DNA of 64,000 nt from a virus (Duplodnaviria > Heunggongvirae > Uroviricota > Caudoviricetes): the IMG/VR virus record IMGVR_UViG_3300022660_000042. One strand, 5' to 3'. The position numbers and the translations under genes were made by a program. The notes under the pieces were generated by a model. The model had not been told where the DNA came from, made no database searches, and was given only the letters and a program-made list of their open reading frames with translations. This document shows, one piece after another, positions 3,116 through 64,000 of this stretch. Position 1 is the stretch's first letter. Every line of letters starts with the position of its first letter.

Positions 3116-4192
3116 TTAACTGAAAAACTCGAACATCGTCGGGCGTTCCAAATTAATTTCTTCCTTTGGACCTAACCAACCGGCAATTCTGAACATCGTA
3201 TCAAAAAGCTGACAGAACGATTTTCTGAACGCGGTTTCATAGTCAATCTCAAAGTATTTATTAAATTCTTTCGGCCAAGATTCAAGATATGCAACCGCTT
3301 CAATCGGTTCTATCTTTCCGTCCATATCCTTAGCTGAAATCTTTTGAGAAGGCTTTACATATACATAACGCAATTTTGAGTTATTACGAATCGGATTATA
3401 TTTCAACCTGTCCTTTGTGATAATATAGTTGTAGATAATGGAAATCTTTGCACCGAAAATAAGACCTGTCGGAAGAATCAAACCATGGTCCATATAATAG
3501 TCCATAAGAGTTTCGTATTTCGTGTCGAACGGCTGTGTATTCATCGAACTTTCCATATATTGTTCTCTGAATTTATCCATTGCGATTGTAGTATATTTCG
3601 TATAGTTCTTGATACCAATAACAGACGAAATAACATTCAAATCTGAGCTCTTAAACTGGTCATAAACCTTGTAGATATATTCCTGTGCTTCTTCCTTACC
3701 GATACCGTCACAAATTTTGAACGCGAGTTCTTCGGCTGCAACCTTACAGAAGTCAGGCATTATAGATTTCTTAATAGGAATACCCATGATTTTGTGTTTC
3801 ATGTGGTCCAACGGAAACTTCTTACCTTCACTGTCGATAATATTACCGATATACAACTTCTTCGCAAAACAGAACATGTTTTTGAAGATATTTTCACGGT
3901 TAAAATTAATCTTATTGACTGTATGGAATTGTGTGGCTCGAATTTCAAGAATCCTATCAAAAAAGCGCTGGAATATGTTTTCGCATTTCTCAAAATATCT
4001 ACGATATTCATCTTCATTCGTAATCGATAAACCAGATTCTAATAAACGACGCTTAAGTTCGATAATCGAGAAATAAACGGAGTCCGTGTCATTATGTACG
4101 GCACAGACATCACGTCCTTTCACAACAAGCGGACTCATGTTGTTCATTTGAAATTTATCAATCTTTACATCTAATGCTTTCTTAAATTCCAT
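3116..4192 (-). CDS. family-B DNA polymerase, C-terminal subunit (palm motif C / thumb)
   Basis: Contains the HNDTDSVYF motif C (YGDTDS-type). Real start ATG at 4192..4190 (MEFKKALDV...) with GAGGA Shine-Dalgarno 6 nt upstream. The junction with the upstream gene is TAA-A-ATG. Confidence 0.8.
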   Translation of the reverse strand: MEFKKALDVKIDKFQMNNMSPLVVKGRDVCAVHNDTDSVYFSIIELKRRLLESGLSITNEDEYRRYFEKCENIFQRFFDRILEIRATQFHTVNKINFNRENIFKNMFCFAKKLYIGNIIDSEGKKFPLDHMKHKIMGIPIKKSIMPDFCKVAAEELAFKICDGIGKEEAQEYIYKVYDQFKSSDLNVISSVIGIKNYTKYTTIAMDKFREQYMESSMNTQPFDTKYETLMDYYMDHGLILPTGLIFGAKISIIYNYIITKDRLKYNPIRNNSKLRYVYVKPSQKISAKDMDGKIEPIEAVAYLESWPKEFNKYFEIDYETAFRKSFCQLFDTMFRIAGWLGPKEEINLERPTMFEFFS

Positions 4193-4193
4193 T

Positions 4194-6401
4194 TTAATCC
4201 TCAATACCGAGAAGGTCAGTGTCCTTGTTGAATTCATAAGCATAGATTTCCATTTCGTCATTACCGCGAAGAACGGTAATCTTTTCATAGAAATCATACT
4301 TATATGTCTTTTCTTCTGTAATAATGGAAACTGTCGAGAATTCCTTAATTACATCCTTGAGCAAGTACGGAGAAACATAGTATTCGTTAAGATGCTTAGT
4401 CAACCAGTCTCTCAAGGTAACACGAGCACAACGACAAATTGCACGGGCAACATCCGGGTCATACAATGCGAAGCTGTTTGCAAGAGATACACCGTAAACC
4501 GAGTTAATAATCAACTTCTTGGTCATTTGTCGGTTATGATAAAGATGTGCACCAGCCTTGTCACCATTCTTTTCACATTCCTTTTCCTTATTCTTATATA
4601 TCTTACGTTCTGCAAACACCTGCTTAACAACGTTCGGAAGAATACCATCGTCACGGTTATAGAACCCAAGTTCTGCAACATCCGTCGGAATAACCTCACC
4701 GGATTCAATCTGTTCCTTAGTAGGATGAACAACCTTCAATTCTGGAGAGATATGGAATTCCATAATATGGTGCGGATATGAAGACGTAATATCGAAAGAC
4801 ATACAGTCGTCATGTCGGCCAGGGAAGTCATAACAATAACCGGCTTTTACCTGGAATTCTGGGAATGGATGAGGATCCTTCTTATAAGCATTCCATGCTT
4901 CTATGAAAGCATCTTCAGTTTTCCAATGTTCAAATCGTTTCTGACCAACTATTGACCTAATCGTGGCATAATCGGCTTTTCCTACTTTCTGAGCTTCCTT
5001 ATAGGCATCATAGAAAATCCTGAACTTACAATAATCCTTGTAACGTTTTGCACCAGGTTCCCATTCAGTGTTCTCGAAGTAATCGTTTCCATCCTTATCC
5101 TTGATAATATAGCAACGTTCGTTTCTCCACCAGTCAACATGATGGTCTTCGCGGTCATTAAGCACACGGTTTGTCTTGTGCAAGAACTTCAAGATATAAC
5201 CGGTAGTCGTCGGAACTTTCTGTTCAACCTTATCGAGAGTTACAAGGCAATCGAACGCATATTCAATAATAAGGTCGAAAAGCTTATTCTTTGTTTCCAA
5301 GTCGACCATAATCATAACGTCCTTTCGGTTATACTTCAGGAAGTTATTACCGTCAATCTTGTAGGTTTCAGAAATCGCACCGCTATACTCCAATTTCTGG
5401 TCATTCAATTCGAGGTTGGCCACATAGTTAAGAGAATACGAAGAAAGAGGCGGATGAGATCCGAAGACTTCGTACAGTTTCATGTAGTCAAGCGAATACA
5501 AACCAGGAATGGTATATTTAGTTCCGAGTTCGACATTTTCCATCTTGCGGTCAGTAATCTTTTCCGCAATAGGCATCATGCCAAGAGGAGACAACTGCTT
5601 TTCCCATTCTACCTTTATATCCAGTTTTTCTCTAAGGACTTCACAACGACGCATGATATACGGAATATCGTATGCAAGCGAATTCCAACCTGTAATGATG
5701 TCAAAATGGTTATTGGCGAACCACTTTATCCATTCTCGGATAAGTACCGCTTCTGACTTACAATACGTATAGTTAGGCAAATCCTTAGGGTCATCCGTAT
5801 ATCTGATTGTACTCCAGGTATAAGATTGCTTTGTCTTTGTAGAATAACAAGTAATTGCGTTAATCGGCCATTGTGCTATTTCAGGAGACGGGAAATCATA
5901 GGAAACGAAACAGCTGTCTTCGTACGGAAGATATTTATCAACTTCAATATCATAAACGAAATACTTATCATGGTCAAACTTCATGTCGAAATCAATAAGA
6001 CTAACATCGATAGTCTTATTGGTTTTCTTCTCACAAACTTTAATCAACGTTTCGTCATAATACTTACTGCCAGACGCAACTTCAATATCGAAGAAACAAA
6101 TGTTCCACAAACTCATGTCTACATGGAGTTCTTCGTTATCGTACAGCTGATGCATGTATTTGACTTCAGGACGCAAATTACCTTCACAGACGCCTTTCAG
6201 ACCTATTAACGAATTTCGGTCCTTATAAGGGAACCTTTCCATTGGAGTCTTATGAATATCGGTAAGCTTGCTCTTTTTTGTCTTATCAGGAATGTAGCAC
6301 CAGTTATTGAATTCTACTTCCTTAAATTCAGTATCTTCTTGGGCCTTAAAGTATAACTTTTGTTTCTTAAAGTCCCAATAACAATTTTTAAATCCACTCA
6401 T
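4194..6401 (-). CDS. family-B DNA polymerase, N-terminal subunit (3'-5' exonuclease plus palm motifs A and B)
   Basis: 735 aa; Exo I FFDIEVASGS; motif A SFDITSSYPHHIM (DxxSLYPS-type); motif B KKLIINSVYGVSLANS (KxxxNSxYG). Ends with TAA at 4196..4194. Confidence 0.85.
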   Translation of the reverse strand: MSGFKNCYWDFKKQKLYFKAQEDTEFKEVEFNNWCYIPDKTKKSKLTDIHKTPMERFPYKDRNSLIGLKGVCEGNLRPEVKYMHQLYDNEELHVDMSLWNICFFDIEVASGSKYYDETLIKVCEKKTNKTIDVSLIDFDMKFDHDKYFVYDIEVDKYLPYEDSCFVSYDFPSPEIAQWPINAITCYSTKTKQSYTWSTIRYTDDPKDLPNYTYCKSEAVLIREWIKWFANNHFDIITGWNSLAYDIPYIMRRCEVLREKLDIKVEWEKQLSPLGMMPIAEKITDRKMENVELGTKYTIPGLYSLDYMKLYEVFGSHPPLSSYSLNYVANLELNDQKLEYSGAISETYKIDGNNFLKYNRKDVMIMVDLETKNKLFDLIIEYAFDCLVTLDKVEQKVPTTTGYILKFLHKTNRVLNDREDHHVDWWRNERCYIIKDKDGNDYFENTEWEPGAKRYKDYCKFRIFYDAYKEAQKVGKADYATIRSIVGQKRFEHWKTEDAFIEAWNAYKKDPHPFPEFQVKAGYCYDFPGRHDDCMSFDITSSYPHHIMEFHISPELKVVHPTKEQIESGEVIPTDVAELGFYNRDDGILPNVVKQVFAERKIYKNKEKECEKNGDKAGAHLYHNRQMTKKLIINSVYGVSLANSFALYDPDVARAICRCARVTLRDWLTKHLNEYYVSPYLLKDVIKEFSTVSIITEEKTYKYDFYEKITVLRGNDEMEIYAYEFNKDTDLLGIED

Positions 6402-6409
6402 ATAGTTTA

Positions 6410-6446
6410 AATATAGAAAAAACCTACAAATGATTAAATTTGTAGG
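6410..6446 (-). promoter_or_regulatory. -10 TATATT plus hairpin (CCTACAAAT...ATTTGTAGG) upstream of DNA polymerase
   Basis: Plus-strand AATATA at 6410..6415, 8 nt from the polymerase ATG (6401); hairpin at 6423..6446 followed by a T-run. Confidence 0.45.
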
Positions 6447-6470
6447 TCTTTTTATTCCAAAATTCTTTAA

Positions 6471-6677
6471 TTATGCATTCAACGTCTTGATGAAGGTCTG
6501 CATATCCTGGAAAGCCTGGAGATAGCCGGCCTTGAATTCAGCCTTAGCTTCCGGGACTTCAGTCTTACGGACTTCATCGATCTTTGCGACCACGATTTGC
6601 TTGATTGCACGGAGGTTGTTAACAACAACGTCTTCGGCGTCAACTGCATCATTAAAGTTATTAGCATTAGTCATCAT
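6471..6677 (-). CDS. hypothetical protein
   Basis: 68-aa ORF, co-oriented, in an otherwise noncoding gap. Confidence 0.4.
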   Translation of the reverse strand: MMTNANNFNDAVDAEDVVVNNLRAIKQIVVAKIDEVRKTEVPEAKAEFKAGYLQAFQDMQTFIKTLNA

Positions 6678-6880
6678 ATTATGTTTTCCTTTATCGTTTA
6701 GTTAACCATATATTATAGGTTCTTGTGTCTTCTTGTTGTTTCTTCGCATTGTCAGGAATCATAGACTGATATTCTTCCGGAATTTCAGAAAAATCTGGAG
6801 CCTGCTCATATTGTTTCCATACATTGATATTACCGATAGCATTTGCTATTTCTGGCATACCTTCTGTAACTTCTTCAATA

Positions 6881-7171
6881 TCAAGCGGTAGTCGTCTCTT
6901 TCTGCTGTACTCTGGTATCATATCTAAACTTTATCCTTCCTTTACTCATATCATAGATGTTCACACCGATAAGGCATTTATCACCTGGAGTGATATGAAT
7001 ATGCTTAACACGAATTTTGCCAGATATAGTGCAAAGCACTCTCTGACCATTTTCTAGTTCAACGTCAAACATCGCATTAGGGCGGGCTTCTAAAACCGTG
7101 CCGATAACGTCGACTTCTGACAAGTTTTGTTTTTCTGCTTTATCTTTTTTATTAGTTTTAATTTTCTTCAT
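6881..7171 (-). CDS. infA: translation initiation factor IF-1 homolog (S1-like OB fold)
   Basis: GTVLEARPNAMFDVELENGQRVLCTISGKIRVKHIHITPGDKCLIGVNIYDMSKGRIKFRY aligns nearly position by position with E. coli IF1 ([60 protein letters not shown], from memory). Confidence 0.8.
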   Translation of the reverse strand: MKKIKTNKKDKAEKQNLSEVDVIGTVLEARPNAMFDVELENGQRVLCTISGKIRVKHIHITPGDKCLIGVNIYDMSKGRIKFRYDTRVQQKETTTA

Positions 7172-7173
7172 TT

Positions 7174-8193
7174 TTAATTCGCAGCTGTCTCAAGCTCAGC
7201 ATCAGTGGTCGTGTTTTCTTCATTAGATGGCATTTCAAAAGTCGATTCTCCGTCTGCTACAACTTCGAATTCTTCAACAGGTTCATTAGATTCTTCTTTA
7301 TGCTGTGCTTCTTGTTTTTCTTCAGATAGCTTCTTAATTCTTTCACTATTAGCCTTCACCAAAGCAAGTCGCTTAGCACCTTCGTCTACTTGGACAGAAG
7401 ATTGCTTAGTAAGCGTACTTCCCAATTCACTCAGATCTGCGGTTTCGAGCATTGCATCGAGGTTAGCTTTCTTTTCTTTCAAGATTTCTTCTTCAGTTTT
7501 CGCAGGTTCTGCTTTTTTAACAACTTTAGGTTTCGTTACTTGCGGTGCTGCTGCAGTTTCAGTTACTTTTTCAGTCTTCTTTTCGACAACTTTGGCTGCA
7601 ACGGGCTTTTTCTTAATAACAGTCTTTTTAACCGGAGCAGGTGCTACAACAACTTCCGGTTCTTTTTCTTTGTAAATAATCTTTGGAGCTGGCGGTGGTG
7701 GATTCATGATTTCATCACACATGTCCAACATGCATTCATTAAGCTTTGTGAGGCCAGTCATTCCATATTTAAAAAACATTGCGGTCATTTTCTCTTTCAT
7801 TTCGTCAATAAGAGAAAAAGCTTCAGAAAAAGCGGGGTTATTAATATAACCCGCACTTTCTGTAAATGTTTGTGGCTTTTTAGCTGGACGTCTGCGAACA
7901 GGCGCCGGCTCTACATAATTCGTATCATCGTCAAAATCGGGTTCAGCAGGAACTGGTGCAGGACGCGGTGCCGGAGCAGGAGCCGGACGTGGCGCAGGCC
8001 TTGGTGAAGGACGCTGCGTACGATGGGCTTCATTTATTTCCGGAACTTCGTCATTATAGAATTCATCATCTTCAAGCTCATCGACATTGACTGTCTGAGC
8101 CTTATAATTCTTATATGCCTCAAGTTTCTGTTCTTCGGTATAAGACGGGTCGTTTCTATGTAGATAGCTTATAAAAGAATCACCATTACTCAT
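7174..8193 (-). CDS. hypothetical Pro/Ala-rich protein
   Basis: 339 aa with a PRPAPRPAPAPAPRPAPVP repeat and K/E-rich coiled segments. Confidence 0.5.
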   Translation of the reverse strand: MSNGDSFISYLHRNDPSYTEEQKLEAYKNYKAQTVNVDELEDDEFYNDEVPEINEAHRTQRPSPRPAPRPAPAPAPRPAPVPAEPDFDDDTNYVEPAPVRRRPAKKPQTFTESAGYINNPAFSEAFSLIDEMKEKMTAMFFKYGMTGLTKLNECMLDMCDEIMNPPPPAPKIIYKEKEPEVVVAPAPVKKTVIKKKPVAAKVVEKKTEKVTETAAAPQVTKPKVVKKAEPAKTEEEILKEKKANLDAMLETADLSELGSTLTKQSSVQVDEGAKRLALVKANSERIKKLSEEKQEAQHKEESNEPVEEFEVVADGESTFEMPSNEENTTTDAELETAAN

Positions 8194-8238
8194 AATTATA
8201 CCTTATTTATAGAAGTTATTTTTAAAATATAGAAAATT

Positions 8239-14144: not shown

Positions 14145-14173
14145 TTTACAAAAACGCTTCAGTTTGCTATATT
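14145..14173 (+). promoter_or_regulatory. sigma70-type promoter for the CCA-adding enzyme gene (TTTACA-17-TATATT)
   Basis: -35 TTTACA at 14145..14150, a 17-nt spacer, -10 TATATT at 14168..14173, and ATG at 14181 only 7 nt downstream, i.e. a leaderless arrangement. Confidence 0.55.
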
Positions 14174-14180
14174 TATTAAC

Positions 14181-15368
14181 ATGAAGATTGATTTATCGAC
14201 TATCAAAAATGACCTCCTCACTTCTGGTATGAAACTCGCTTCCGCTATCGAAAGCAAGGGTTACGAAGCATATCTGGTTGGCGGTTGCGTTCGTGACATG
14301 GTTCGTTGGACTATTGGCCAATGTGGTTTTCCGGATATTCACGATATTGACATCAGCACGAACATGCCTATCGATGAACTTCAGAAAAACTTCAAAACTG
14401 CCAGTAACAATGGCGAAGCTCACGGCACTATTCTGGTTTTCCAGGACGGTGAGCCTTTTGAAGTGACTCAGTTCCGTACCGATGGCGCTTATACCGATGG
14501 TCGTCACCCGGATTCAATCAAGTTCGCCAAGACTTTCAAGGAAGACTGCTTACGCCGCGATTTTACTATCAACGCAATGGGTCTTACCGGTCAGGGTGAA
14601 GTCATTGACTATTACGGTGGTATCGATGATGTTACGAACGGCATTATCCGAGCTGTCGGTAAGGCAGAAGACCGTTTTGCTGAAGATTATCTCAGAATTT
14701 TCCGCGGTGTTCGTTTCATGGTCAACTTCGACTATTCTTTGGCTGATAGTACCTATGAAGCGATGAAGACAACCGTTGATACTTATACTTATAAGATTAA
14801 CTCTCTGTCTTATCCTCGTATTCGTGATGAAATCAGCAAGGTCAAGAATCCTTCTAAGAATCTCGCTTTGTTTTTCACGACACTGTATCGTACCGGTATT
14901 CTGAAATACTTGGTTACTTTCGAAGATGTTGATATTCCGGGTCTGATTGCACGTTTAGAATCTGTAAATCATCTCACTGCGGATAACATCTTTGCGGTTA
15001 TCGCTTTCGGCGAATACGACGTAATGTTACATCGTCTTGCTGCTACTCGAGAAGATTCTCGTTTGCTCAAGTGGTATTATTACATGCTCAAGAAGCTGAA
15101 AGAACCTAACGAAAATACAAGCTGGGACACTATTGTTAAATTCGTCGAAGGTGATTACAAAACTCTCCTCGAACTGTCCAAGATTGTTCCTGCCTGGTAT
15201 AACAGAATTCCTATCGCTTTGAAGCTTAAAAAGGATAAACCCGATTTACATGCTATCTCTGAAAGAGTTCAGAACGAATTTCATGTTAAACCAGGTCCTA
15301 AGTTCGGTGCAGCTGTTAGCTACCTGCTCGAAGAGGCTTACGAAGCAAAAGCAAGGCATCTTCAATAA
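14181..15368 (+). CDS. cca: tRNA nucleotidyltransferase (CCA-adding enzyme) / poly(A) polymerase family
   Basis: Class II nucleotidyltransferase head motif GGCVRD with downstream D.D and RRDFTINA-like signature; 395 aa. It is the only convincing plus-strand gene. Confidence 0.8.
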   Translation: MKIDLSTIKNDLLTSGMKLASAIESKGYEAYLVGGCVRDMVRWTIGQCGFPDIHDIDISTNMPIDELQKNFKTASNNGEAHGTILVFQDGEPFEVTQFRTDGAYTDGRHPDSIKFAKTFKEDCLRRDFTINAMGLTGQGEVIDYYGGIDDVTNGIIRAVGKAEDRFAEDYLRIFRGVRFMVNFDYSLADSTYEAMKTTVDTYTYKINSLSYPRIRDEISKVKNPSKNLALFFTTLYRTGILKYLVTFEDVDIPGLIARLESVNHLTADNIFAVIAFGEYDVMLHRLAATREDSRLLKWYYYMLKKLKEPNENTSWDTIVKFVEGDYKTLLELSKIVPAWYNRIPIALKLKKDKPDLHAISERVQNEFHVKPGPKFGAAVSYLLEEAYEAKARHLQ

Positions 15369-15370
15369 AA

Positions 15371-15400
15371 ATAAACCCGGTTTTAAAAACCGGGTTTTCT
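15371..15400. terminator. bidirectional rho-independent terminator between convergent genes
   Basis: AAACCCGG-ttttaaaaa-CCGGGTTT perfect inverted repeat flanked by A-run and T-run (TCTTTT), between the + gene end (15368) and the - gene end (15402). Confidence 0.75.
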
Positions 15401-15401
15401 T

Positions 15402-15650
15402 TTACTTAGCGGTAGATTCCCAACTGAAAGTAATTGTGTTATTGTCTTCGTCCATTCGAAGGAACTTAAATTCAAATTCAGAGAATTCAATATCCTTACG
15501 TTTCATCGTGGGCGATTTTACTTGAACTTCAAGAACTGGCAAACAGCATTCTCGGAATCGTGTGATTTGACGAGATGCTCCAGGAGTTCCTTCAGCTTCA
15601 TCTACAATAGAACATGCTTTAGTTTTCTTATTAACTCTTACAATAACCAT
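15402..15650 (-). CDS. hypothetical protein
   Basis: 82-aa ORF immediately downstream of the kinase gene. Confidence 0.4.
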   Translation of the reverse strand: MVIVRVNKKTKACSIVDEAEGTPGASRQITRFRECCLPVLEVQVKSPTMKRKDIEFSEFEFKFLRMDEDNNTITFSWESTAK

Positions 15651-16091
15651 TTAGATTCTCCGTTTAATTTTAATTTCGTTTTCCAGATCCTTAAACTGTT
15701 CTTTCATGTATGCAACCTTATCTGGCGGTACATTATGAACATTTTGGAATTCGTTATCCATACGATAAATCGTGACCTCAATGCCACGAGCTGCCGCCTC
15801 TTTCAAATACGGTTTCATATCCTTACGGGTTACAAAAGTATTTGCGACGATAACATACTGAATTCCGTCGTCTAATGCCTTAAACGCTCTTTCATAACAA
15901 TTTTTATGGGCATAATAAATTCGTTTTTGGTCGAAATTATAATTACCCTTATCATCATACCAAAAATCGTCGGCCTCGAAGTGCTTGACTGTATAGCCCT
16001 GCTTTTCGAGGTCGGCTTTAAGCGCTTTGGCATAAGTAGACTTTCCGGATCCAGGGATTCCCCTGATAATTATTAATGTCTGCTTTGCCAT
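15651..16091 (-). CDS. polynucleotide kinase-like P-loop kinase (Pnk kinase domain only)
   Basis: IIRGIPGSGKSTYA Walker A. C-terminal VANTFVTRKDMKPYLKEAAARGIEVTIYRMD...VPPDKV parallels the T4 Pnk kinase domain ([30 protein letters not shown], from memory). No phosphatase domain. Confidence 0.65.
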   Translation of the reverse strand: MAKQTLIIIRGIPGSGKSTYAKALKADLEKQGYTVKHFEADDFWYDDKGNYNFDQKRIYYAHKNCYERAFKALDDGIQYVIVANTFVTRKDMKPYLKEAAARGIEVTIYRMDNEFQNVHNVPPDKVAYMKEQFKDLENEIKIKRRI

Positions 16092-16103
16092 TTTTCTGAT
16101 TTC

Positions 16104-16286
16104 CTATTCTGTGAACCGATATATTATCGCAACCAGTAGAACATTCAGTAAATAGAATTTAAAGAATATTCCTAGGATTGTACGACAACATAAGTCTTTG
16201 CTTGTGGTTCCTATTGAAGATATGACTAAAAAGAAACATTCCAATAGGAACAACGCCGTTCCATATTCAAATATAGTTAAAATCAT
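16104..16286 (-). CDS. small hydrophobic protein
   Basis: 60-aa ORF with two hydrophobic stretches, filling the gap between the kinase and ligase genes. Confidence 0.3.
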   Translation of the reverse strand: MILTIFEYGTALFLLECFFLVISSIGTTSKDLCCRTILGIFFKFYLLNVLLVAIIYRFTE

Positions 16287-17551
16287 TCTTCAATAGTCCT
16301 CTGCACGTTAGAAGGTTCCAATTTTTTGTGAACTGCACGCTTAACAGATGCATAATTAGTGATATTACGATTAATGCACTTGATAGCCTGCATAATAGCC
16401 CCAATATCGCTCTTATAGTGCTCCAGAGCGTATTCGTAGCGAGAACGCTGGTCTTCGCAAGCCTTCATGGTTTCGCGAGCCTCAGCGAGAACTTCTTCAG
16501 TACGTTCCTTAACCTGAATGCGGACACTTTCGGCGTATGCACGTAAATCAGGGAATTCTTCAGGAATATACAGAACTTCATCATCTACAGGCTTGTAACC
16601 GTTAGTCTTGTCGACATGGGCATGGAAGAAATCCTTTTCACAGTCATACGCTACCCAGATATTCCACTCGCTGAGGCATTCGAATATCTTTGCGAGCTGG
16701 CACCATTCATCGGATTTAACCTTGACCTTGAATCCATATTCCGGGAAAGTTACAACATAACCTTCCTGAGACGAAGGAAGCTTGGTCGCAGTATTTCGAG
16801 CGTCATTGAAATTATCGTATTCATAGATTTCTGCCATCTTGATTTGCCAAGTATTGGCATAAGCGCTAAGTCCAATAATATGCTCTTCAGCACCAGTTTC
16901 ATTGTCGATAACTGCCAAAAGAACAAGACCTTCAAAATCATAACGAATCGGGTGAAAATCTTCATTTGAAACAATTTCAAACAAATAAGTTTTCTTCGGA
17001 TTCAAAGTTGCCGCATGAGGACCGCCGATATGCTGGTCAAACCAACGCTGTCCCCAAATTGCCTGGTCAGAATCGAAAGATCCACCGGTCTTCAACTGCC
17101 AATGCTTAAGATAAGGATTCCAGAATACAATACCTAAAGAACCGTCCACCTTTTCCATAGTCAGGAAACGAATAGACTTGAGAATCTTTCGAATATCAAT
17201 TTTCTTCTGGTACTTCATTACCTTTTTTGCAAGGTCGGTAAGTTCGCCAGTTTCGTTGTTAATCAATTCGCCATAGTTGAAGAATTTATCAAAAGGACGT
17301 GCTACAATTTCGCCGGTTTCAGAATCGAAAACAATACCACGAGCATTGAGAGTAATTTCATCCCAATCCGATGAATATACTGTTTCACGAGTATACTTGA
17401 AACCAACCAGCTTACCATACCAGTGAGCTGAAATACGTCCCTTCTTTGCTGCCTTCAAATACTTACGGAGTCTGTGCTTGTTCCGCAGTTTCCGGAGTAG
17501 GTTCTTCAGCCAAGTCATCATTTTTCTTTTCCACCTTTTTCTTAGGCTCAT
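16283..17551 (-). CDS. Rnl1-type RNA ligase (T4 RnlA-like tRNA repair ligase); start uncertain
   Basis: KxDG nucleotidyltransferase motif MEKVDGSL. YSSDWDEITLNARGIVF / RPFDKFFNYGE parallels T4 Rnl1 YSDWLLPDALECRGIMF / RPMEKFFNLNE. The first ~30 codons overlap the 17463..17738 ORF in another frame and look like out-of-frame translation. Confidence 0.8.
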   Translation of the reverse strand: MSLRKRWKRKMMTWLKNLLRKLRNKHRLRKYLKAAKKGRISAHWYGKLVGFKYTRETVYSSDWDEITLNARGIVFDSETGEIVARPFDKFFNYGELINNETGELTDLAKKVMKYQKKIDIRKILKSIRFLTMEKVDGSLGIVFWNPYLKHWQLKTGGSFDSDQAIWGQRWFDQHIGGPHAATLNPKKTYLFEIVSNEDFHPIRYDFEGLVLLAVIDNETGAEEHIIGLSAYANTWQIKMAEIYEYDNFNDARNTATKLPSSQEGYVVTFPEYGFKVKVKSDEWCQLAKIFECLSEWNIWVAYDCEKDFFHAHVDKTNGYKPVDDEVLYIPEEFPDLRAYAESVRIQVKERTEEVLAEARETMKACEDQRSRYEYALEHYKSDIGAIMQAIKCINRNITNYASVKRAVHKKLEPSNVQRTIEE

Positions 17552-17738
17552 ACTTATGAGTCTTATCGAGTTCTACCGTTTCAATAGTACATCCAGCTTC
17601 ATACTTTTCACGAATGAAACTTTCAAGTTCTCCGCGAACTTCAGTTTCCGTTTCGCCATAACGCTTAAAAACAAGCGGTCCTGGAATACCTTCAATTAAA
17701 ACCAAGCACTTATAACGTTGTTTCATTATTTTTCCCAC
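17463..17738 (-). CDS. hypothetical acidic protein
   Basis: 91-aa ORF whose 3' end overlaps the annotated 5' end of the RNA ligase ORF. Confidence 0.4.
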   Translation of the reverse strand: MGKIMKQRYKCLVLIEGIPGPLVFKRYGETETEVRGELESFIREKYEAGCTIETVELDKTHKYEPKKKVEKKNDDLAEEPTPETAEQAQTP

Positions 17739-18391
17739 ATGGCATCGGTTTTGACCAGTTCATCAATGCTTACTGGACGATACCATGCTTCCCAGCTAAC
17801 ATTGTTTTCGACCATTTTGCCGTTATGGTTATCGACAACGCTAGTCTTGTTGAATTCATGCGTATGACCATGAACGAGATAGTCAATAGGCTTACCTTCC
17901 GCAAGATACTGGTTCAATGCGGTCGGGTCACCAGTTGTACCGTCATGTTCATTAATCGTTTCATCATAATTATAATGCTGCAACAGATAGTTCTTACCAT
18001 TATACGTAAGGTAAATGTTATCCTTTACCATAGTAATGTTCGGAAACATAGTTTCCTTGACCGGATAGAGCTTCTTGAACAGAGCATAGTCATGATTACC
18101 ACGAATCATATACATGTGCTTGAAATTCAACTTGTTCGTGTAATAATCGCCAAACACTTCAAGCAACTTGCTACCGGGAGTACCGAGAGTAAAATCACCG
18201 AGGAAAATGACAATATCATTCGGAGAAACAACAGAATTCCATTGCTTCACAATATCTTCATTCATTTCCTCGACGGTTACGTACTTTCGTGTACGGTCAA
18301 AATGATCCTCGTAACTCGTGCAGAGTTTACGATGATTAACGTGCAAGTCACTGACAATAAAAATCTTTTCGTTGTGTAATTCTAGTTCCAT
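17726..18391 (-). CDS. calcineurin-like metallophosphoesterase
   Basis: Motifs SDLHV (DxH), GDF, GNHD and GHTH in canonical order. Start moved to ATG at 18391 (MELELHNEK), 6 nt downstream of a TATATT -10. Confidence 0.75.
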   Translation of the reverse strand: MELELHNEKIFIVSDLHVNHRKLCTSYEDHFDRTRKYVTVEEMNEDIVKQWNSVVSPNDIVIFLGDFTLGTPGSKLLEVFGDYYTNKLNFKHMYMIRGNHDYALFKKLYPVKETMFPNITMVKDNIYLTYNGKNYLLQHYNYDETINEHDGTTGDPTALNQYLAEGKPIDYLVHGHTHEFNKTSVVDNHNGKMVENNVSWEAWYRPVSIDELVKTDAMWEK

Positions 18392-18397
18392 AATGCA

Positions 18398-18432
18398 AAT
18401 ATAATAAAAATAAGGCATTTTGTAAATGCCTT
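18398..18432 (-). promoter_or_regulatory. promoter (TTTACA-17-TATATT) with -35 inside a terminator-like hairpin
   Basis: Plus-strand AATATA at 18398..18403; hairpin AAGGCATTttgtAAATGCCTT at 18412..18432 contains the -35 (plus-strand TGTAAA). Confidence 0.5.
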
Positions 18433-24402: not shown

Positions 24403-25272
24403 TTATCGATTTTTTACAAAATCTAAAATATCCTTTTTAACTGATTCGTAGTAGTCATCCCAGATTTTCATAACTAAATTAATAGTTTTATCTGATACAT
24501 CATCCATTTTTATCTTTTTTGTATAATTCGGAGATGCATTGAAAACATACTTATCGCCGAGAATGGCTTGTGCTTCATAAATTGGTGATTTTGAACTTCT
24601 TGCTACCCAATCTCCAATCATATATTCTGCCCATCCTAACAATGTTTTATTTCCATGTTCTGTATTTGGTGTATTCATTCCAGTATTAAAATTTAAAAGT
24701 TTAAGATTTCGATTGCCTTGTTTAAATTGACCAGCAATAACTATATCGGCAGGGTTATTTGCCCAACAGCCACCGTCCATATAAGAGTTTCCATCTTTTT
24801 CTATAACATCAAAATATGTAGGTGCTGCTGTTGATGTAAGTACAGCAAATGCCTTTGTTGTATCTTTATCACCTAAATCCCACACTTTTTCTACAGAAGC
24901 ACCATTCATAAATGTTGTTGTAATATAGATAGGTTTTTTCCAATCACTAACTTTACCTTTAAGTTTTTCTTCTAAAATTTTTTTAAGATTTGTATTATCA
25001 TATGTTGGACACGTTGGTTTAAGTCGTTTATACCAGGAATTTTTTGTAAAAATTTTCTTTAAATTATCTTGGTATAATTTAAATATATCATGTGCACTCA
25101 TACCTTCATTCATACATGCAGCAACTATTGAACCCGTAGAAGTACCAGTATATGCTGATACATAATCACCTAATTTTTTACCTAGATCTTGTTCCAATCT
25201 GCACATAAATGCTAAAGGTCCCATAGCCAAGGCTCCACCACCTTCAATACTTAAACACAATTGTTTGCCCAT
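24403..25272 (-). CDS. patatin-like phospholipase
   Basis: Oxyanion-hole GGGALAMG (GGGxxG) near the N-terminus and nucleophile elbow GTSTGS (GxSxG); DGG near the end of the domain. Confidence 0.8.
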   Translation of the reverse strand: MGKQLCLSIEGGGALAMGPLAFMCRLEQDLGKKLGDYVSAYTGTSTGSIVAACMNEGMSAHDIFKLYQDNLKKIFTKNSWYKRLKPTCPTYDNTNLKKILEEKLKGKVSDWKKPIYITTTFMNGASVEKVWDLGDKDTTKAFAVLTSTAAPTYFDVIEKDGNSYMDGGCWANNPADIVIAGQFKQGNRNLKLLNFNTGMNTPNTEHGNKTLLGWAEYMIGDWVARSSKSPIYEAQAILGDKYVFNASPNYTKKIKMDDVSDKTINLVMKIWDDYYESVKKDILDFVKNR

Positions 25273-31178: not shown

Positions 31179-32819
31179 TTAGCGACGACGGCGACGAGAA
31201 AGTTCAGCAATAACTGTCGGATCGTTCATCATGTCCGAAAGGCTACGTCCAATAGAAGTATTAGCTTCAGCCGGTTCCTTAGTCTTGTCAACATTCGGAG
31301 TTTCCGGACGAGCTTCAGCCTTAGGTTCATTTACGACTTCTGCTTCGGTCTTTTCAACCTTTGGAGCACCGGAAACACCAGCGAGTCGGGCACCGAACAT
31401 AGAACCGAGAACAGTCTTGAGGTCCATACCGAGAGAATCGGTCAAACCGCTAGAAATCTGAGTAAGCGTCTTGGTAATATCGCCGGTGAGCTTTGCAGTA
31501 CCGCTTTCACCGTACATATTGATGTTACCAATCTTTTCCATCGGCTTAGCAACTGCACCAGCGATAGCCGGGAGCTGTTCGAAATACTTTTCAATAGTCT
31601 TGAGCTGCATTTCCTGACGAGCTGCATCACCATACTTCTTCATGGCTTCAGCCTTCTGGTCAAGAGCTGCTGCTTCTGCAAGACCCTTAGCCTTTACAGC
31701 ATCAGCTTCAGCTTCACCCTTAGCCTTAGTAGCTGCAGCTTCAGCGAAAGCCTTTTCCTTATCAGCTTCAGCCTTGGCGATAATTGCCTTAGCTTGCTGC
31801 TGCTGGGTAAAGAGTGCTGCTTCAGCTTCCTTCTGCTGCTTATAAAGTTCAGCATCAGAACGCTGCATCTGAGCCTGCTTATCGGCTTCAGCCTTCTTCT
31901 GAATTTCAGCTTCGAGTTCCTTCTGACGGACAGCTACCATGCGTTCACGAATTTCAATCTGCTTTTCCTGCTTTGCAACTTCTGCAGCTGCTGCAGTAAT
32001 ATTGATGGTCTTCTGCTGTTCCTGCTTCTGAATTTCATAAGCGGCATCAGCTTCGGCCTTCTTAGTATCAGAAATTCGCTTAAGGTCAGCCTTCTTAACT
32101 TCGAGGTCGTTCTGCTTCTGAGCGATTTCAAGGTTTGCTGCAACCTGAGCATCGTTTGCTGTCTTCGCTGCTTCAGCCTGAGCAATCTTCACGTCACGTT
32201 CTGCATTTGCTCGAGAAATTGATGCAGCCTTCTGAATTGCTACAGCCTTATCAACACCGAGGTTTTCAATTACCTTACCGTCGTCCGAGAAGTTCTGAAT
32301 ATTGAAGGTCTTAACGATAATACCGAGCTTTTCAAGATCTGGAATAGCATTTTCAAGAACCTTCTCAGAAACCTGCTTTCGGTCCGTAACCATGTCGACA
32401 AGATTCATCTGGCCGACAATCTCACGCATATTACCCTCAAGCACGTCAACAATCATCGCCTTAATCTGTTCAATCGGCTTATTGAGGAAGTTCTGGGCAG
32501 CTTTCTTAATTGCTTCAGGTTCATCAGAAATCTTTGCATTAACAACAGCGTCAACTGTTACATTAATGTAGTCCTTGGTCGGAACTGCCTGCTTAGTCTT
32601 GACGTCAATCGGAATCAACTTCAAGCTAAGAACGTCAGCACGTTCAAGGAACGGGATCTTGAAACCGGCATGCCCGATAATTGTTCGAAGCTGTCGGAAA
32701 CCCGAAATAATAATTACTTCATCCGGCGCCGCCTTAATATAAGACGTAATGAAGAGGATAACGAGGAAAAGTACGAGCAGGCCGATACCCGCACCGATGA
32801 GGATATTTGAACTAAGCAT
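31179..32819 (-). CDS. flotillin-like SPFH/band-7 domain protein with long Ala/Glu/Lys-rich coiled coil
   Basis: N-terminal TM helix, then an SPFH-like region (APDEVIIISGFRQLRTIIGHAGFKIPFLERADVLSLKLIPIDV...), then a ~200-aa AEA/AKA-repeat coiled coil typical of flotillin/YqiK. Confidence 0.75.
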   Translation of the reverse strand: MLSSNILIGAGIGLLVLFLVILFITSYIKAAPDEVIIISGFRQLRTIIGHAGFKIPFLERADVLSLKLIPIDVKTKQAVPTKDYINVTVDAVVNAKISDEPEAIKKAAQNFLNKPIEQIKAMIVDVLEGNMREIVGQMNLVDMVTDRKQVSEKVLENAIPDLEKLGIIVKTFNIQNFSDDGKVIENLGVDKAVAIQKAASISRANAERDVKIAQAEAAKTANDAQVAANLEIAQKQNDLEVKKADLKRISDTKKAEADAAYEIQKQEQQKTINITAAAAEVAKQEKQIEIRERMVAVRQKELEAEIQKKAEADKQAQMQRSDAELYKQQKEAEAALFTQQQQAKAIIAKAEADKEKAFAEAAATKAKGEAEADAVKAKGLAEAAALDQKAEAMKKYGDAARQEMQLKTIEKYFEQLPAIAGAVAKPMEKIGNINMYGESGTAKLTGDITKTLTQISSGLTDSLGMDLKTVLGSMFGARLAGVSGAPKVEKTEAEVVNEPKAEARPETPNVDKTKEPAEANTSIGRSLSDMMNDPTVIAELSRRRRR

Positions 32820-32858: not shown

Positions 32859-33599
32859 CTAATCGTTCAGCCATGAGTTTTCCATTGCAATAAAGATACA
32901 ACATATTACAATAATAACTATCGAGAAAATTATCCAGAAATACAATACTGTATGTTTCCAGCTAAAATCCTCTACTGCTTGATCGATTTTTACATTGTCA
33001 CGATATTCTGCATCATTCATTCGATGATTATCGATATTTGCATATACCGTTCCAGTAAAACTTAATGGGCGACAATAATAAACATATCGTTTATTATGTG
33101 CGAAATTGATTGTCTTTACATAATGACCGCTTGGCAATTCCGGAAACTGACCGTAGTAAAAGTCTTTCTTAATAAAATTAACTTTATCTACATTCCAGTC
33201 TTTTGCTCCATGATAGTCCCATGTCCAATAGACCTTAGTATGACAGCTACGTGTCTTTCCAGAACCAGTACAAACAAGCTTCGTATGCATCGTATAGACC
33301 TCGAGCACTCGATGGACTGACATATACTTACCTGGCAAACCGTCGTCTGTAACACTGCCTATCGCGGAAACAGTTCCGTATGCCAAAGTATGCCCAGCAT
33401 TAGTATTGAATGCATATTGAAACTGTGTAGAATCGTTATCGATTTTCACAGCCTGATTGTACTTCGCATTATGGTCATCTTGCCAAAGATCCATCCTATT
33501 ACCTACGTAGAAACCTACTGCTAGGGAAATAAGAGCGAATACAAGCGCTACAATAACTTCACGCTGAGTTACTTCAATATTGGTATCACCAATATACAT
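32859..33599 (-). CDS. membrane protein (TM helices at both ends) cotranscribed with LemA
   Basis: Start overlaps the LemA stop by 1 nt. Hydrophobic helices near the N- and C-termini. Confidence 0.5.
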   Translation of the reverse strand: MYIGDTNIEVTQREVIVALVFALISLAVGFYVGNRMDLWQDDHNAKYNQAVKIDNDSTQFQYAFNTNAGHTLAYGTVSAIGSVTDDGLPGKYMSVHRVLEVYTMHTKLVCTGSGKTRSCHTKVYWTWDYHGAKDWNVDKVNFIKKDFYYGQFPELPSGHYVKTINFAHNKRYVYYCRPLSFTGTVYANIDNHRMNDAEYRDNVKIDQAVEDFSWKHTVLYFWIIFSIVIIVICCIFIAMENSWLND

Positions 33600-34156
33600 T
33601 AATTCTTTTCCTTAAGAAGTCCTGTGGGTGCGTCTACTGGCGCATTTGCAAATTCAAGAACCTTATAGTCCTTTTCCTGATAACCTAGAATACTCAAACA
33701 GATGTTTGACGGGAACATACGAACATGCTGATGATATTCGGTTACATTTTTATTATAATACTTACGATGCGACGCAATTCGATTTTCAGTCATGGATAAT
33801 TCATTCATGTACTGCTTATAATTTTCTATTGAACGCAATTCTGGATAACGTTCTACAACACCACGGATATATGCAGAAGCATTAACATTTCCGTTGCCTT
33901 CTGCTGGTGTACGAGCCTGTGATAGCTGTACCAAAACTTCGGCTTCATGCTTGTTATACGACATTACTGCTTCTGCCAAGTTAACAAGCAAGCCTGCACG
34001 TCGATTATATTCGGTGTTCAAATCGCTCAAAGAACTTTCAATGAGCAATTCCTTTGCGATTGCCTTATTTTGTGAGCTTTGTACGCCAAACACTGTGGCG
34101 ATAATCAATGCTACAATAATAGCAAGACTTGAAATTAAGACTGTTACGGGTTTCAT
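33599..34156 (-). CDS. lemA: LemA-family protein
   Basis: N-terminal TM plus conserved LemA-like core (...YNRRAGLLVNLAEAV...VERYPELRSIENYKQYMNELSMTENRIASHRKYYNKNVTEYHQHVRMFPSNI...). Confidence 0.7.
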   Translation of the reverse strand: MKPVTVLISSLAIIVALIIATVFGVQSSQNKAIAKELLIESSLSDLNTEYNRRAGLLVNLAEAVMSYNKHEAEVLVQLSQARTPAEGNGNVNASAYIRGVVERYPELRSIENYKQYMNELSMTENRIASHRKYYNKNVTEYHQHVRMFPSNICLSILGYQEKDYKVLEFANAPVDAPTGLLKEKN

Positions 34157-37296: not shown

Positions 37297-37358
37297 AATA
37301 TTGCAAATATAGTAAATATTTTTTAACCAATTTTATTTTGTCTTACAAACTTCTGAAA

Positions 37359-38456
37359 TTAAAGGATTTCAAAATACGGTGCATATTTTTCCATGACTTC
37401 AATAACCTTCTTGTAATCAATCTTATTAAGATTCTTCGGAAGGTCCATACCGCCCTTGTTAATCAAATCGCCACAATTTGCAAAATAAAGAAGCTTCTTT
37501 TCTTCACGACAAATTGTTTCCTGCTGAATTACAAGATTAAATTCCTTCTTAGGAAGATACTTCTTGAAATTGGAAATATACTTCGTATAAACAGACTTCA
37601 ATTCTTCAGCATGTTCAGGATCCGTAGTTGCAGAAAGCATCAAAATACCGTTATTGACATATTCAATTACTCCAGCACGAGACTGATATGCAAGACCACG
37701 CTTTTCTCGAATTTCATGATAAAGCGGAGAAGTCAACTTACCGTTAAGCATTTCAAGGGCAATGACTACATACGGATAATCCTTCTTGGAAACCGGCTTC
37801 TTACAGATTGCAAAAACAGTTTCTTTTTCAGGAGCCGGAACAGGCATCAAGCTAACCTTATAATCCTTCTTCCAACGAAGCTTTGTTGTAATTTCAGGCA
37901 TCTTGGTCAAGAACTTAACCTTTACGCCAGTTGTCTGGCGAGGGCCGACTTCAACAATACGAACAGGTTTGAAAAGTTCCTTAAAAAGCTTCTTAGCGTC
38001 TGCAAGAGTAAAATTCATAATATCTTCAGTCTTGCCAAGAACGAAATCGTTATTGAAATGTTGACGAAGCAGGTTATGAAGCTTACCTTCTACAGGACGG
38101 TTAAATGCATCCAAAATTTCCTGGTAAACAATCTTTTGTTCTTTTTCGAAAACTTCCTTTGTGACATAAGTATCGAAACCGGTAGTAACACGTTCAATAA
38201 GCAACTTCTTCCATTCCGGAGTAAGATACTTATCCATGCCAGTAAAATGAACTACGAGCAAATCTGTGCTTGTATAGGCATTAAAATCGATGTTATATTT
38301 CTGAAAGTCATCAAATTGGTCTTGAATAGTATTCGTAATCAAGTGTTCCATCAAATGATGACAACCATGCTGACCATCTTTTTCATAACTAGAACCTGCC
38401 TGGAATACGATATACAAGCCAGTCTTCTTAAAAGATTTCTTCTTATAGATATACAT
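37359..38456 (-). CDS. M16-family (pitrilysin/insulinase-like) zinc peptidase
   Basis: Inverted zincin motif HxxEH as HLMEHL near the N-terminus (GCHHLMEHLITNT); ~365 aa, consistent with a single M16 domain. Confidence 0.55.
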   Translation of the reverse strand: MYIYKKKSFKKTGLYIVFQAGSSYEKDGQHGCHHLMEHLITNTIQDQFDDFQKYNIDFNAYTSTDLLVVHFTGMDKYLTPEWKKLLIERVTTGFDTYVTKEVFEKEQKIVYQEILDAFNRPVEGKLHNLLRQHFNNDFVLGKTEDIMNFTLADAKKLFKELFKPVRIVEVGPRQTTGVKVKFLTKMPEITTKLRWKKDYKVSLMPVPAPEKETVFAICKKPVSKKDYPYVVIALEMLNGKLTSPLYHEIREKRGLAYQSRAGVIEYVNNGILMLSATTDPEHAEELKSVYTKYISNFKKYLPKKEFNLVIQQETICREEKKLLYFANCGDLINKGGMDLPKNLNKIDYKKVIEVMEKYAPYFEIL

Positions 38457-41128: not shown

Positions 41129-41169
41129 GTCCTCAAATATAGGTAAAAATAATTTTTTAGTTTTATGCT

Positions 41170-41830: not shown

Positions 41831-42247
41831 TTAACCTGTTGTATAAAGCATTTTCTTATAGTCTAAATAATTCTTAATAGTAAATCCAAGATTCTTAATA
41901 TTCGTCAATGTTTCTTCGATAAAATCAAAGTAATACTTCTGTGTATCGTATTCTTTTACTGCTGCAAGATATTTCGGATCCTTATAAATTTGGGATTCGA
42001 TTTCTTTTGTAGTTCCCCAGCTCACATTATCGTTAAACTTATAATAATAATAGCATTCTCCATATATCTTATTCAAATTAACCTTGAGCTGAGATATAAG
42101 ATACTTTTGTGTCGTATATAGTTTTGTCCATTTCTGAACAGTAGAAGGTAAAAGGTTATTTACTTGCATTACCTGTTCAATATTGTCAGGCAATGCAGTA
42201 TCTTCTTCAGCGTATTTCTTTAATGTCTCAAAATCTTCTACTTTCAT
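41831..42247 (-). CDS. hypothetical protein
   Basis: 138-aa ORF. Confidence 0.45.
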   Translation of the reverse strand: MKVEDFETLKKYAEEDTALPDNIEQVMQVNNLLPSTVQKWTKLYTTQKYLISQLKVNLNKIYGECYYYYKFNDNVSWGTTKEIESQIYKDPKYLAAVKEYDTQKYYFDFIEETLTNIKNLGFTIKNYLDYKKMLYTTG

Positions 42248-42754
42248 AACTTATCCTTAACAATTAAATATAGCAAAACTGTAACAAATAGTTTACAACC
42301 TATATATAAAAGTTCTATGATTTTTAAAACGACAGAATATTTTATTTTTAGTTAAAAAAATTTTTACAAAAACTTTCTATTATTGTTTTCACATATTCAA
42401 GTCTGATTCCTCGGAACGAAAACCAATCCAATGGAATTATCGGTAGAGGGTCAGCCATTGAAAACTTCAGATACGGGTTTTCCAGAAATGAGCTGGAATA
42501 TCGTTTTGAAATATACTCGGTAACAGCTAGTGAAAGTATCAGCGAAGTACAGATTAGCAATCTGCACGTTTAGCCGCCATGGTTTTAACGGATGTAGCCG
42601 AAGTACAGGATGACCGCCTCGTAAGCCGTTATGTAAATCCCTAAAGATTGACGATGAAGCTTTATACCAAAAGTGGAATAGTCATAGTCTGGAAGTTCCT
42701 TCTAGGCTTATGATCTCTGAATCGCATTACCCAAAAGATAGAACAGATAAAAAT

Positions 42755-45668: not shown

Positions 45669-45688
45669 ATCATATTTATAAGTATAAA

Positions 45689-54553: not shown

Positions 54554-54570
54554 ATATTATTTATAGAAGG

Positions 54571-58440: not shown

Positions 58441-58460
58441 ATTATATTTATAAATTTTGA

Positions 58461-63985: not shown

Positions 63986-64000
63986 ATCTTATTTATAAAT

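Follow-up and report, generated by a model that had tools for sequence, protein, structure and literature searches.

A bacterial-type translation initiation factor 1 with a lysine-rich tail, inherited within a lineage of very large phages

Why would a tailed virus carry a translation initiation factor of its own, and does that factor work as its cellular counterpart does? The question is raised by a 96-codon open reading frame (ORF) in IMG/VR virus record IMGVR_UViG_3300022660_000042 (Caudoviricetes), of which 64,000 nucleotides were analysed (herein the window, meaning this whole stretch of DNA). An earlier note, made from the letters of the sequence, had read the ORF as a homologue of bacterial initiation factor 1 (IF1) with an extra basic N-terminal extension and had tied it tentatively to apparent leaderless mRNAs in the same genome. 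We find that the product is a bacterial-type IF1-family protein of the oligonucleotide/oligosaccharide-binding (OB) fold, and that the tailed IF1 to which it belongs is a vertically inherited core gene of a diversified lineage of large (~420 kb) phages. The gene probably encodes a working factor, and we weigh this reading below against the alternatives.

Identity of the ORF product

The coding sequence and its three parts are as follows.

6881..7171, minus strand: IF1 homologue coding sequence, 96 amino acids plus TGA stop (ATG 7171-7169, TGA 6883-6881)
7115..7171, minus strand: lysine-rich N-terminal tail MKKIKTNKKDKAEKQNLSE, codons 1-19, with seven lysines and three acidic residues (D/E), predicted unstructured
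6920..7114, minus strand: OB-fold IF1 core, codons 20-84, placed by alignment, AlphaFold2 and Foldseek
6881..6919, minus strand: strain-specific C-terminal read-on DTRVQQKETTTA, codons 85-96 plus stop, overlapping the start of the next gene (Y) by 41 nt

The product (MKKIKTNKKDKAEKQNLSEVDVIGTVLEARPNAMFDVELENGQRVLCTISGKIRVKHIHITPGDKCLIGVNIYDMSKGRIKFRYDTRVQQKETTTA) scores 70 bits on PF01176 (eIF-1a/IF-1; cut-off 30.2, E 1.3e-19, profile positions 3-64 of 64) and 79.7 bits on the infA equivalog model TIGR00008 of NCBIfam (cut-off 61.15, E 1.1e-22, profile positions 5-69 of 69). At E <= 1, Pfam yields no match to a cold-shock domain (CSD) or S1 profile, and the remaining matches there, RsgA_N (16 bits) and EF_0837-like_N (13 bits), are both below cut-off; the profile assignment is specifically to IF1 rather than to the generic cold-shock or S1 domain that the earlier note had raised as a possibility. 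The archaeal and eukaryotic IF1A models give it 16-24 bits (cut-offs 91-202), well below what aIF1A/eIF1A membership demands (NF003082, 24.4 bits against 108; TIGR00523, 18.1 against 102.9). Among sequences in the PDB, all significant matches are IF1 (the best being 2N8N, E 1.6e-19) with the exception of a single eIF-1A, which ranks lowest (E 1.6e-5). The VELENG and SGK(I/M)R motifs and the basic N-terminal extension noted earlier are all present in the 96-residue product, at residues 37-42 (VELENG), 50-54 (SGKIR) and 2-14 (KKIKTNKKDKAEK), respectively.

The fold agrees with the profiles. An AlphaFold2 (AF2) model made from 38 homologues has the topology of IF1, with a predicted local distance difference test score (pLDDT) of ~90 in the core and strands at residues 19-30, 34-39, 44-49, 65-71 and 77-83 together with a helix at residues 51-55. 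The top 11 Foldseek matches of this model are all IF1 structures, with target-normalised template-modelling (TM) scores of 0.77-0.95; for crystal and cryo-electron microscopy IF1 chains the scores are 0.88-0.95, at root-mean-square deviations of 0.8-1.1 A. The claim of homology over the whole OB fold thus holds by profile as well as by predicted structure. Outside the core the model is far less certain, the tail having a pLDDT of 53-64 and no secondary structure and the C-terminal read-on appearing as a low-confidence helix.

Residues that contact the ribosome

In characterised IF1s, K39 and M42 contact the backbone of the 530 loop, R41 and R46 lie at the flipped bases A1492 and A1493, H35, Y60, R64 and R66 point towards ribosomal protein S12, and a C-terminal Arg (R69/70) is needed for 30S binding in Escherichia coli (PMC10913371, PMC4611024). 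Aligned to the E. coli and Thermus thermophilus reference sequences, which were verified against the PDB beforehand, the phage protein has K52 for K39, V55 for M42, R54 for R41, H59 for R46, T48 for H35, Y73 for Y60, K77 for R64, R79 for R66 and R83 for R69/70. With the sole exception of R46, then, every basic contact residue is retained or has a conservative replacement, and the A-site-contacting residues whose absence the earlier note had considered (K52, R54, K77, R79 and R83) are present, only H59 being non-basic. What the protein lacks are residues typical of IF1 without defining it, namely the R/K after the PNAMF loop and the E..P turn, and the curated profiles still accept it.

Reading frame and selection

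Comparison with close relatives confirms the reading frame, since every substitution separating them from the window gene over codons 1-83 falls at a third codon position (12 of 12 for locus L003 and 4 of 4 for locus L001, 16 in all) and the ratio of nonsynonymous to synonymous rates (dN/dS, by the method of Nei and Gojobori, NG86) is low, at 0.00-0.04. Against the 73%-identical homologue in locus L006 the ratio is 0.16-0.23, and the gene is under purifying selection. The tail is less constrained than the core in that comparison (dN/dS ~0.49 versus ~0.18) yet it is retained. The antisense ORFs at 6824-7057 and 7098-7226, both on the plus strand, have no comparable evolutionary support.

The C-terminal end behaves differently. 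Both L006 and L005 lack the read-on, the IF1 stop overlapping the start of Y by 4 nt (ATGA) in each, and the last residues differ even between near-identical variants (TTTA, TTTT, KAPA, KTSA). Judged from these sequences, the last 12 residues of the window protein are a strain-level read-on.

A lineage-specific clade of tailed IF1s

To place the gene among its viral relatives, we scanned IMG/VR with a sequence pattern; IF1 relatives turned up on 168 viral contigs, the best 80 of which yielded 53 distinct proteins. Thirty of these 53 form a tailed group: they are 80-93 amino acids long, start MKK.K..K... and bear 14-23 residues ahead of the core, with 5-9 Lys/Arg. The other 23 are mostly ordinary IF1s of 64-73 amino acids, none with a lysine-rich tail; five reach 81-92 amino acids because the C terminus reads on, the start is over-called or the N terminus is extended by a short stretch (8 residues). 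An exhaustive search of representative sequences added three tailed members (P0044, P0046 and P0057) and is a poor guide to the frequency of tails, as many of the representatives listed are far longer than a normal IF1 and some resemble over-called ORFs.

The tailed group is also defined by its genomic position. When searched by tblastn with the neighbours of the window gene, every tailed IF1 proved to lie downstream of a homologue of ClpP, in most cases as part of the complete block DUF3310-SpoVG-ClpP-(X)-IF1-Y, where X and Y are the genes that flank IF1 in the window; in the closer relatives a further small gene, Z, and the DNA polymerase follow. Y follows at nearly all of the syntenic loci examined, the exceptions being L144 and the truncated contig L124, where no match to Y was seen. 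By the same search, the short viral IF1s have none of these neighbours. Altogether the block recurs in ~50 viral loci, with IF1 identity falling to 45%.

We then inferred a neighbour-joining tree from the IF1 core together with 76 cellular IF1s. In this tree 28 of the 30 tailed proteins lie in a clade of 29 tips that holds no protein from outside the syntenic group, one tip being L144 or L145, the two outliers. The remaining one branches off close by, and two short viral IF1s also descend from the common ancestor of the 30 tailed proteins. Comparison of the 30 tailed proteins with 90 other IF1s gives the signature of the clade: D36 in 23/30 (R/K in 83/90 others, D in none), C47 in 29/30 (A in 73/90 others), G69 in 24/30 (E in 85/90 others), I72 in 21/30 (P in 81/90 others) and, at position 30, R or F where the others have L. 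That R30 might compensate for D36 was considered and dropped, D36 being seen with F30 as well. The outlier L145 combines a tail with a bacterial-type core (FRV, EMSPYD), which suggests, at the level of sequence, that the tail arose before the changes in the core.

We attempted to name a donor or host from the IF1 sequence and failed: identity is 42-62% for every one of the best 80 cellular loci, whose sources include Actinomycetota, Bacillota and Bacteroidota among other phyla, and no cellular IF1 above 62% identity is among the matches listed. The notion that such tails are exclusive to phages was likewise rejected, because a few cellular IF1 ORFs may have short basic extensions. These possible N-terminal extensions were seen, provided that the start codons are correct, in metagenome-assembled genomes (MAGs) of Anaerolineae, Actinomycetota and Acidobacteriota (L052, L015, L038 and L073, among loci L010-L089); an example from an Anaerolineae MAG begins MARKARKPRKIKKDK... 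if its start codon is right.

The literature that we searched contains no description of this clade. Our analysis adds a distinct, vertically inherited clade of tailed IF1s with a fixed gene neighbourhood, which makes a well-defined and testable family (30 distinct viral sequences, a fixed position, a tail, signature substitutions and a constant partner gene). A comparison of the protein with and without its tail would tell a top-up of host IF1 from a changed choice of mRNAs. Near the decoding centre, we conjecture, the tail probably contributes a non-specific affinity for RNA.

Operon and gene neighbourhood

In the window the IF1 gene is the second of a four-gene unit, X-IF1-Y-Z, that lies downstream of ClpP (which ends at 8239) and upstream of the DNA polymerase.

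8204..8232, minus strand: promoter-like motif pair, CTATATTT at 8232-8225 and TATAAATA at 8211-8204, upstream of X-IF1-Y-Z and a putative promoter
7174..8193, minus strand: gene X, 339 amino acids, rich in Pro, Ala and Lys and of low complexity; its stop is 2 nt upstream of the start of IF1
6691..6921, minus strand: gene Y, 76 amino acids, acidic (MIPEY...NIWLTK), the downstream neighbour of the tailed IF1
6471..6677, minus strand: gene Z, 68 amino acids, the last gene of the transcription unit, conserved in closer relatives only
6417..6452, minus strand: terminator-like hairpin, a 15-bp stem followed by a T run, which ends the X-IF1-Y-Z unit
3116-6401, minus strand: split T4-type family-B DNA polymerase (PolB), 735 amino acids at 4194-6401 and a second gene of ~358 amino acids

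Gene X matches no family in profile searches and is weakly conserved in relatives. The TATAAATA motif upstream of it is kept in L006. The IF1 gene has no Shine-Dalgarno (SD) sequence of its own, and because it also starts 2 nt past the stop of X (stop-start junction TAAAAATG), IF1 is probably made by translational coupling to X. Gene Y has 28 invariant positions (MIPEY...W..YE..PD.S.IP.E.Q..IP.N...ED...N.WLTK) and no family in Pfam, PHROGs or NCBIfam; its AF2 model (pLDDT 59, predicted TM score 0.22) is too poor for a fold to be assigned. A functional partnership with the phage IF1 is possible. The hairpin after Z has a fold energy of -16.8 kcal/mol (z-score -4.8 against shuffled sequences) and is followed directly by a copy of CTATATTT (6416-6409) and by PolB, the second part of which is called as 355-370 amino acids in relatives, starting directly past the first stop, the longest ORF in the window (3116-4297) overlapping the first part.

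Nearly all ORFs of the window are on the minus strand. They include a UvsX recombinase, the T4-type PolB, ClpP, a SpoVG-like protein, DUF3310, RNase H, an NAD-ligase and a dCMP deaminase, and the setting bears out the earlier description of IF1 as phage-borne, with UvsX, the split PolB, ClpP, DUF3310, RNase H and an Rnl1 ligase flanking it, on the same strand. A second group of genes, recognised by profile matches, concerns tRNA and RNA repair.

14181-18418: tRNA/RNA-repair and translation-support cluster
14181-15368, plus strand: CCA tRNA nucleotidyltransferase (NF009814, 219.8 bits, below the cut-off of 290)
15651-16091: AAA_33 kinase of the RNA-repair cluster
16283-17551: Rnl1-type RNA ligase of the RNA-repair cluster
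17726-18418: metallophosphoesterase of the RNA-repair cluster

This cluster is probably a counter-measure to anticodon nucleases; no tRNA genes were found within the window. Elsewhere on the minus strand the window carries cargo that is unusual for a phage: a patatin-like phospholipase (24403-25272), an SPFH/flotillin protein of 546 amino acids (31179-32819), a LemA-family protein (33599-34156) and an M16 (insulinase-type) peptidase (37359-38456).

Translation signals and the question of leaderless mRNAs

An SD core at normal spacing precedes 43 of 98 genes (44%, against a background of 7%; p ~3e-23), from which we take the host ribosome to be a normal, SD-reading one. The remaining 56% of phage cistrons are without an SD sequence and must start by coupling, by re-initiation or possibly as leaderless mRNAs. 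The two motifs found upstream of gene X are both enriched in the window (CTATATTT, 16 copies where 7.5 are expected; TATAAATA, 15 where 6.0 are expected; ~2-2.5-fold), almost entirely on the coding strand and just upstream of genes, and eight genes have one of them 4-8 nt from the start codon.

Gene starts 63985, 58440, 54553 and 45668, minus strand: TATAAATA, then exactly 4 nt, then ATG
63990-63997, 58445-58452, 54558-54565 and 45673-45680, minus strand: the corresponding copies of TATAAATA
Gene starts 41128, 37296 and 6401 (PolB), minus strand, and 14181 (CCA-adding enzyme), plus strand: CTATATTT, then 6-8 nt, then ATG
41135-41142, 37305-37312 and 6409-6416, minus strand, and 14167-14174, plus strand: the corresponding copies of CTATATTT

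If these motifs are promoter elements of the -10 type, the geometry implies that the mRNAs would begin at the AUG or within a few nucleotides of it. The TATAAATA motif is identical to the late-promoter consensus of phage T4. Other copies of both motifs precede ordinary leaders with an SD sequence, and the PolB gene of L006 has a 40-nt leader with AAAGGAG, the leaderless geometry not being kept there. Of the suggestion that the phage IF1 serves leaderless mRNAs, then, what stands is the set of eight genes with a motif 4-8 nt before the start; set against it are the 44% of genes with an SD sequence and the loss of the PolB geometry in L006, and the link is possible but unproven.

Source phage and host

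The same gene array, including a 96-residue IF1 overlapping Y, is found on a contig of 418,491 bp; contigs of ~418 kb include ERZ27229658 k119_414475, and five index blocks hold contigs of 0.2-1 Mb. More distant relatives lie on IMG/VR contigs of 415,750 and 424,163 bp. The source is very probably a huge phage of ~420 kb, a size taken from these relatives and not from the 64-kb window. A megablast search with 3 kb around IF1 gave no match among 50,697 phage records, so the lineage has no close sequenced relative there, and PolB allows only a distant placement with T4-like phages (25-35% identity).

The window also contains a full-length match to the Rfam model RF02947 (cow-rumen-2 RNA), scoring 102.8 bits where the gathering score is 66.

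42541-42645, plus strand: cow-rumen-2 RNA, opposite to the strand of nearly all genes, in the gap between the ORFs at 41831-42247 and 42960-43844

This match fits an origin in the rumen and places an orphan metagenomic RNA motif in a huge-phage genome. With regard to the host, the best profile for the CCA-adding enzyme is NF009814 (PRK13299), presumably a Bacillus-type enzyme. Together with the strong use of SD sequences, this match argues weakly for an SD-reading host outside Bacteroidota, possibly of Bacillota; the host is not established.

Proposed function and alternative explanations

We hypothesize, with a probability of roughly 0.65, that the gene encodes a functional, phage-adapted IF1 of bacterial type. 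Like host IF1, such a protein would bind the A-site cleft of the host 30S subunit (h44, the 530 loop and S12), in cooperation with host IF2 and IF3. IF1 activity would be kept up or raised, so that initiation could continue on densely packed polycistronic phage mRNAs, with a benefit for SD-less cistrons that start by coupling or re-initiation or are possibly leaderless. A working factor is favoured because the contact residues are kept (K52, R54, K77, R79, R83 and Y73), because the phage also invests in the upkeep of translation through tRNA repair and CCA addition, because its genes are tightly packed and many lack an SD sequence, and because IF1 strongly stimulates re-initiation by 70S scanning and stimulates leaderless translation in vitro (reviewed in PMC9031893). 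The IF1 genes of Lak, huge and Jug phages have been read in similar terms, as augmenting or redirecting host translation (PMC6784885, PMC7162821, PMC12880540).

Several observations weigh against this hypothesis. Binding to the 30S subunit is predicted from homology. D36 reverses the charge in the loop after PNAMF that enters the minor groove of h44, G69 (for E) and I72 (for P) sit in the beta4-beta5 turn beside the Tyr that faces S12, and H59 stands where most IF1s have R (the counts in other IF1s being R 65, K 12, N 6, Q 5 and H 2), with R in other members of the clade. R79, which is invariant in the comparison set, is I in 5/30 clade members, and K52, which is always basic in the comparison set, is N in 6/30, the window protein keeping both. 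These replacements hint that the classical interface may not be strictly required in the tailed lineage, and D36, G69 and I72, together with the losses of K52 and R79 in some members, leave room for a modified mode of binding. Finally, the IF1 tree names no donor, cellular IF1s from many phyla being equally distant at 42-62% identity.

The same replacements, lying on the ribosome-facing surface, are what could be expected had the protein drifted, with Y, away from the A site to a general RNA-binding or RNA-chaperone role, as an OB protein of S1/cold-shock-like type that would melt structured regions of phage transcripts or take part in antitermination. The lysine-rich disordered tail, which would increase non-specific RNA affinity, fits this explanation too, as does the strict adjacency of IF1 and Y, which suggests a lineage-specific partnership; E. 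coli IF1 itself acts as an RNA chaperone and is a structural relative of CspA. We nonetheless consider such a drift unlikely, given that the window protein keeps its set of contact residues, passes the strict infA equivalog cut-off and matches no CSD or S1 profile.

A role as a competitive or dominant-negative IF1 seems to us slightly less likely still. Here the basic tail would let the phage protein bind the host 30S subunit more tightly and alter the selection of start sites or mRNAs, as a takeover device that shuts down SD-led host messages or relaxes the fidelity control exerted by IF1 and IF3. IF1 and IF3 do set a fidelity checkpoint at subunit docking (PMC4611024), the clade-wide conservation of the basic tail and of the altered h44 loop suggests a changed rather than merely duplicated function, and in eight of the phage genes a promoter-like motif lies 4-8 nt from the start codon. 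A block of SD-led initiation would, however, hurt the phage itself, 44% of whose genes use an ordinary SD sequence, and the leaderless geometry of PolB is not conserved in L006. About as improbable, in our estimate, is a more speculative reading in which the tailed IF1 is a vertically inherited, lineage-specific specificity factor of ~420-kb rumen phages that re-tunes the commitment of the 30S subunit to a start site through its eIF1A-like tail and recharged h44 loop, perhaps with Y. Were this true, SD-less, coupled or leaderless phage cistrons would out-compete host messages, and a bacterial virus would possess its own version of the tail-mediated start-codon control of eukaryotes. The least credible explanation, that the gene plays no part in infection, being a neutral passenger recently taken from a host or else a contaminant from the host or the assembly, draws on database "phage" records with IF1 that are clearly host contigs, and it is effectively refuted by purifying selection, by a co-directional phage operon whose position is conserved in ~50 viral loci down to 45% identity, and by the separate clade that the gene forms, without a cellular relative above 62% among the matches listed.

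Comparison with known systems

Like bacterial IF1 (infA; 1AH9, 1HR0, 2N8N and 4QL5), the phage protein is predicted to form a five-stranded OB barrel in which a short helix follows strand 3 and precedes strand 4. It is ~50% identical over the core to the IF1s of E. coli and Firmicutes, and keeps the equivalents of K39, R41, R64, R66, R69/70 and Y60. It differs in length (96 amino acids against ~72), in bearing a lysine-rich tail of 19 residues before the core and a read-on of 12 residues at the C terminus, in having D36 for R/K, C47 for A, H59 for R, G69 for E and I72 for P, and in its place in an operon with X, Y and Z rather than in a cellular infA context.

That phages encode IF1 is already known, and the present gene is mostly expected, in a distinctive lineage-specific form. 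Lak megaphages carry a "prokaryotic initiation factor-1" (PMC6784885), IF1 genes are reported in the "Clades of huge phages" (PMC7162821), a "translation initiation factor 1A" is a core gene of Jug phages (PMC12880540), and a gene of Sinorhizobium phage Phosso is annotated as IF-1. Like the IF1s of huge phages, the present one is borne by a very large genome (~418 kb in relatives); unlike it, the IF1s of Lak-B5 and Phosso are plain proteins of 72 amino acids with a bacterial-type core and none of the flanking genes of the window. In the literature searched we found no functional study of a phage-borne translation factor.

Some apparent phage IF1s were rejected as comparators. "Acinetobacter phage MD-2021a" (L095, CAKLQH020000005.1) is a fragment of a bacterial chromosome with an ordinary infA among ansA, truA, gadX and leuB. 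"Enterococcus phage Efs 1-1-1" (L091, OR846589.1) is flagged UNVERIFIED_ORG and has a bacterial-type IF1 of standard length with its own GGAGG SD sequence. Both resemble host DNA within the phage collection. The tblastn matches to "Enterococcus/Listeria/Staphylococcus phage" records OR84xxxx were set aside as unverified, host-like contigs.

Two further comparisons are of architecture and concept. The eukaryotic and archaeal factors eIF1A and aIF1A also have an OB core preceded by a basic unstructured N-terminal tail, which in eIF1A makes the codon-anticodon interaction at the P site more favourable (PMC6412873), and the aIF1A profile aligns over residues 2-86 of the phage protein, tail included. 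The resemblance is architectural only, as the phage protein is without the conserved C-terminal helical domain or acidic tail and its core is clearly of bacterial type. The ribosomal protein S21 of huge phages (PMC7162821) offers a conceptual parallel: this small ribosome ligand, also related to initiation, has acquired a basic extension at its N terminus, thought to bind RNA. The protein and the ribosomal site that it binds are both different.

A counterpart outside the clade is gp4 of Bacteroides phage DAC19 (QIG63495.1; DAC19_4, L093 627-932), a 101-residue IF1-domain protein with a 36-residue basic N-terminal extension that is annotated as hypothetical. It has another tail sequence, an altered loop (SNGNGTF), K at the position of D36 and another genome context, and it probably represents an independent acquisition of a tail; gp4 lay outside the tblastn comparison of synteny. 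The PHROG that matches the window protein, 30201, is labelled "unknown function" and is an IF1 family, and on our result both this PHROG and genes listed as "hypothetical", DAC19_4 among them, can be annotated.

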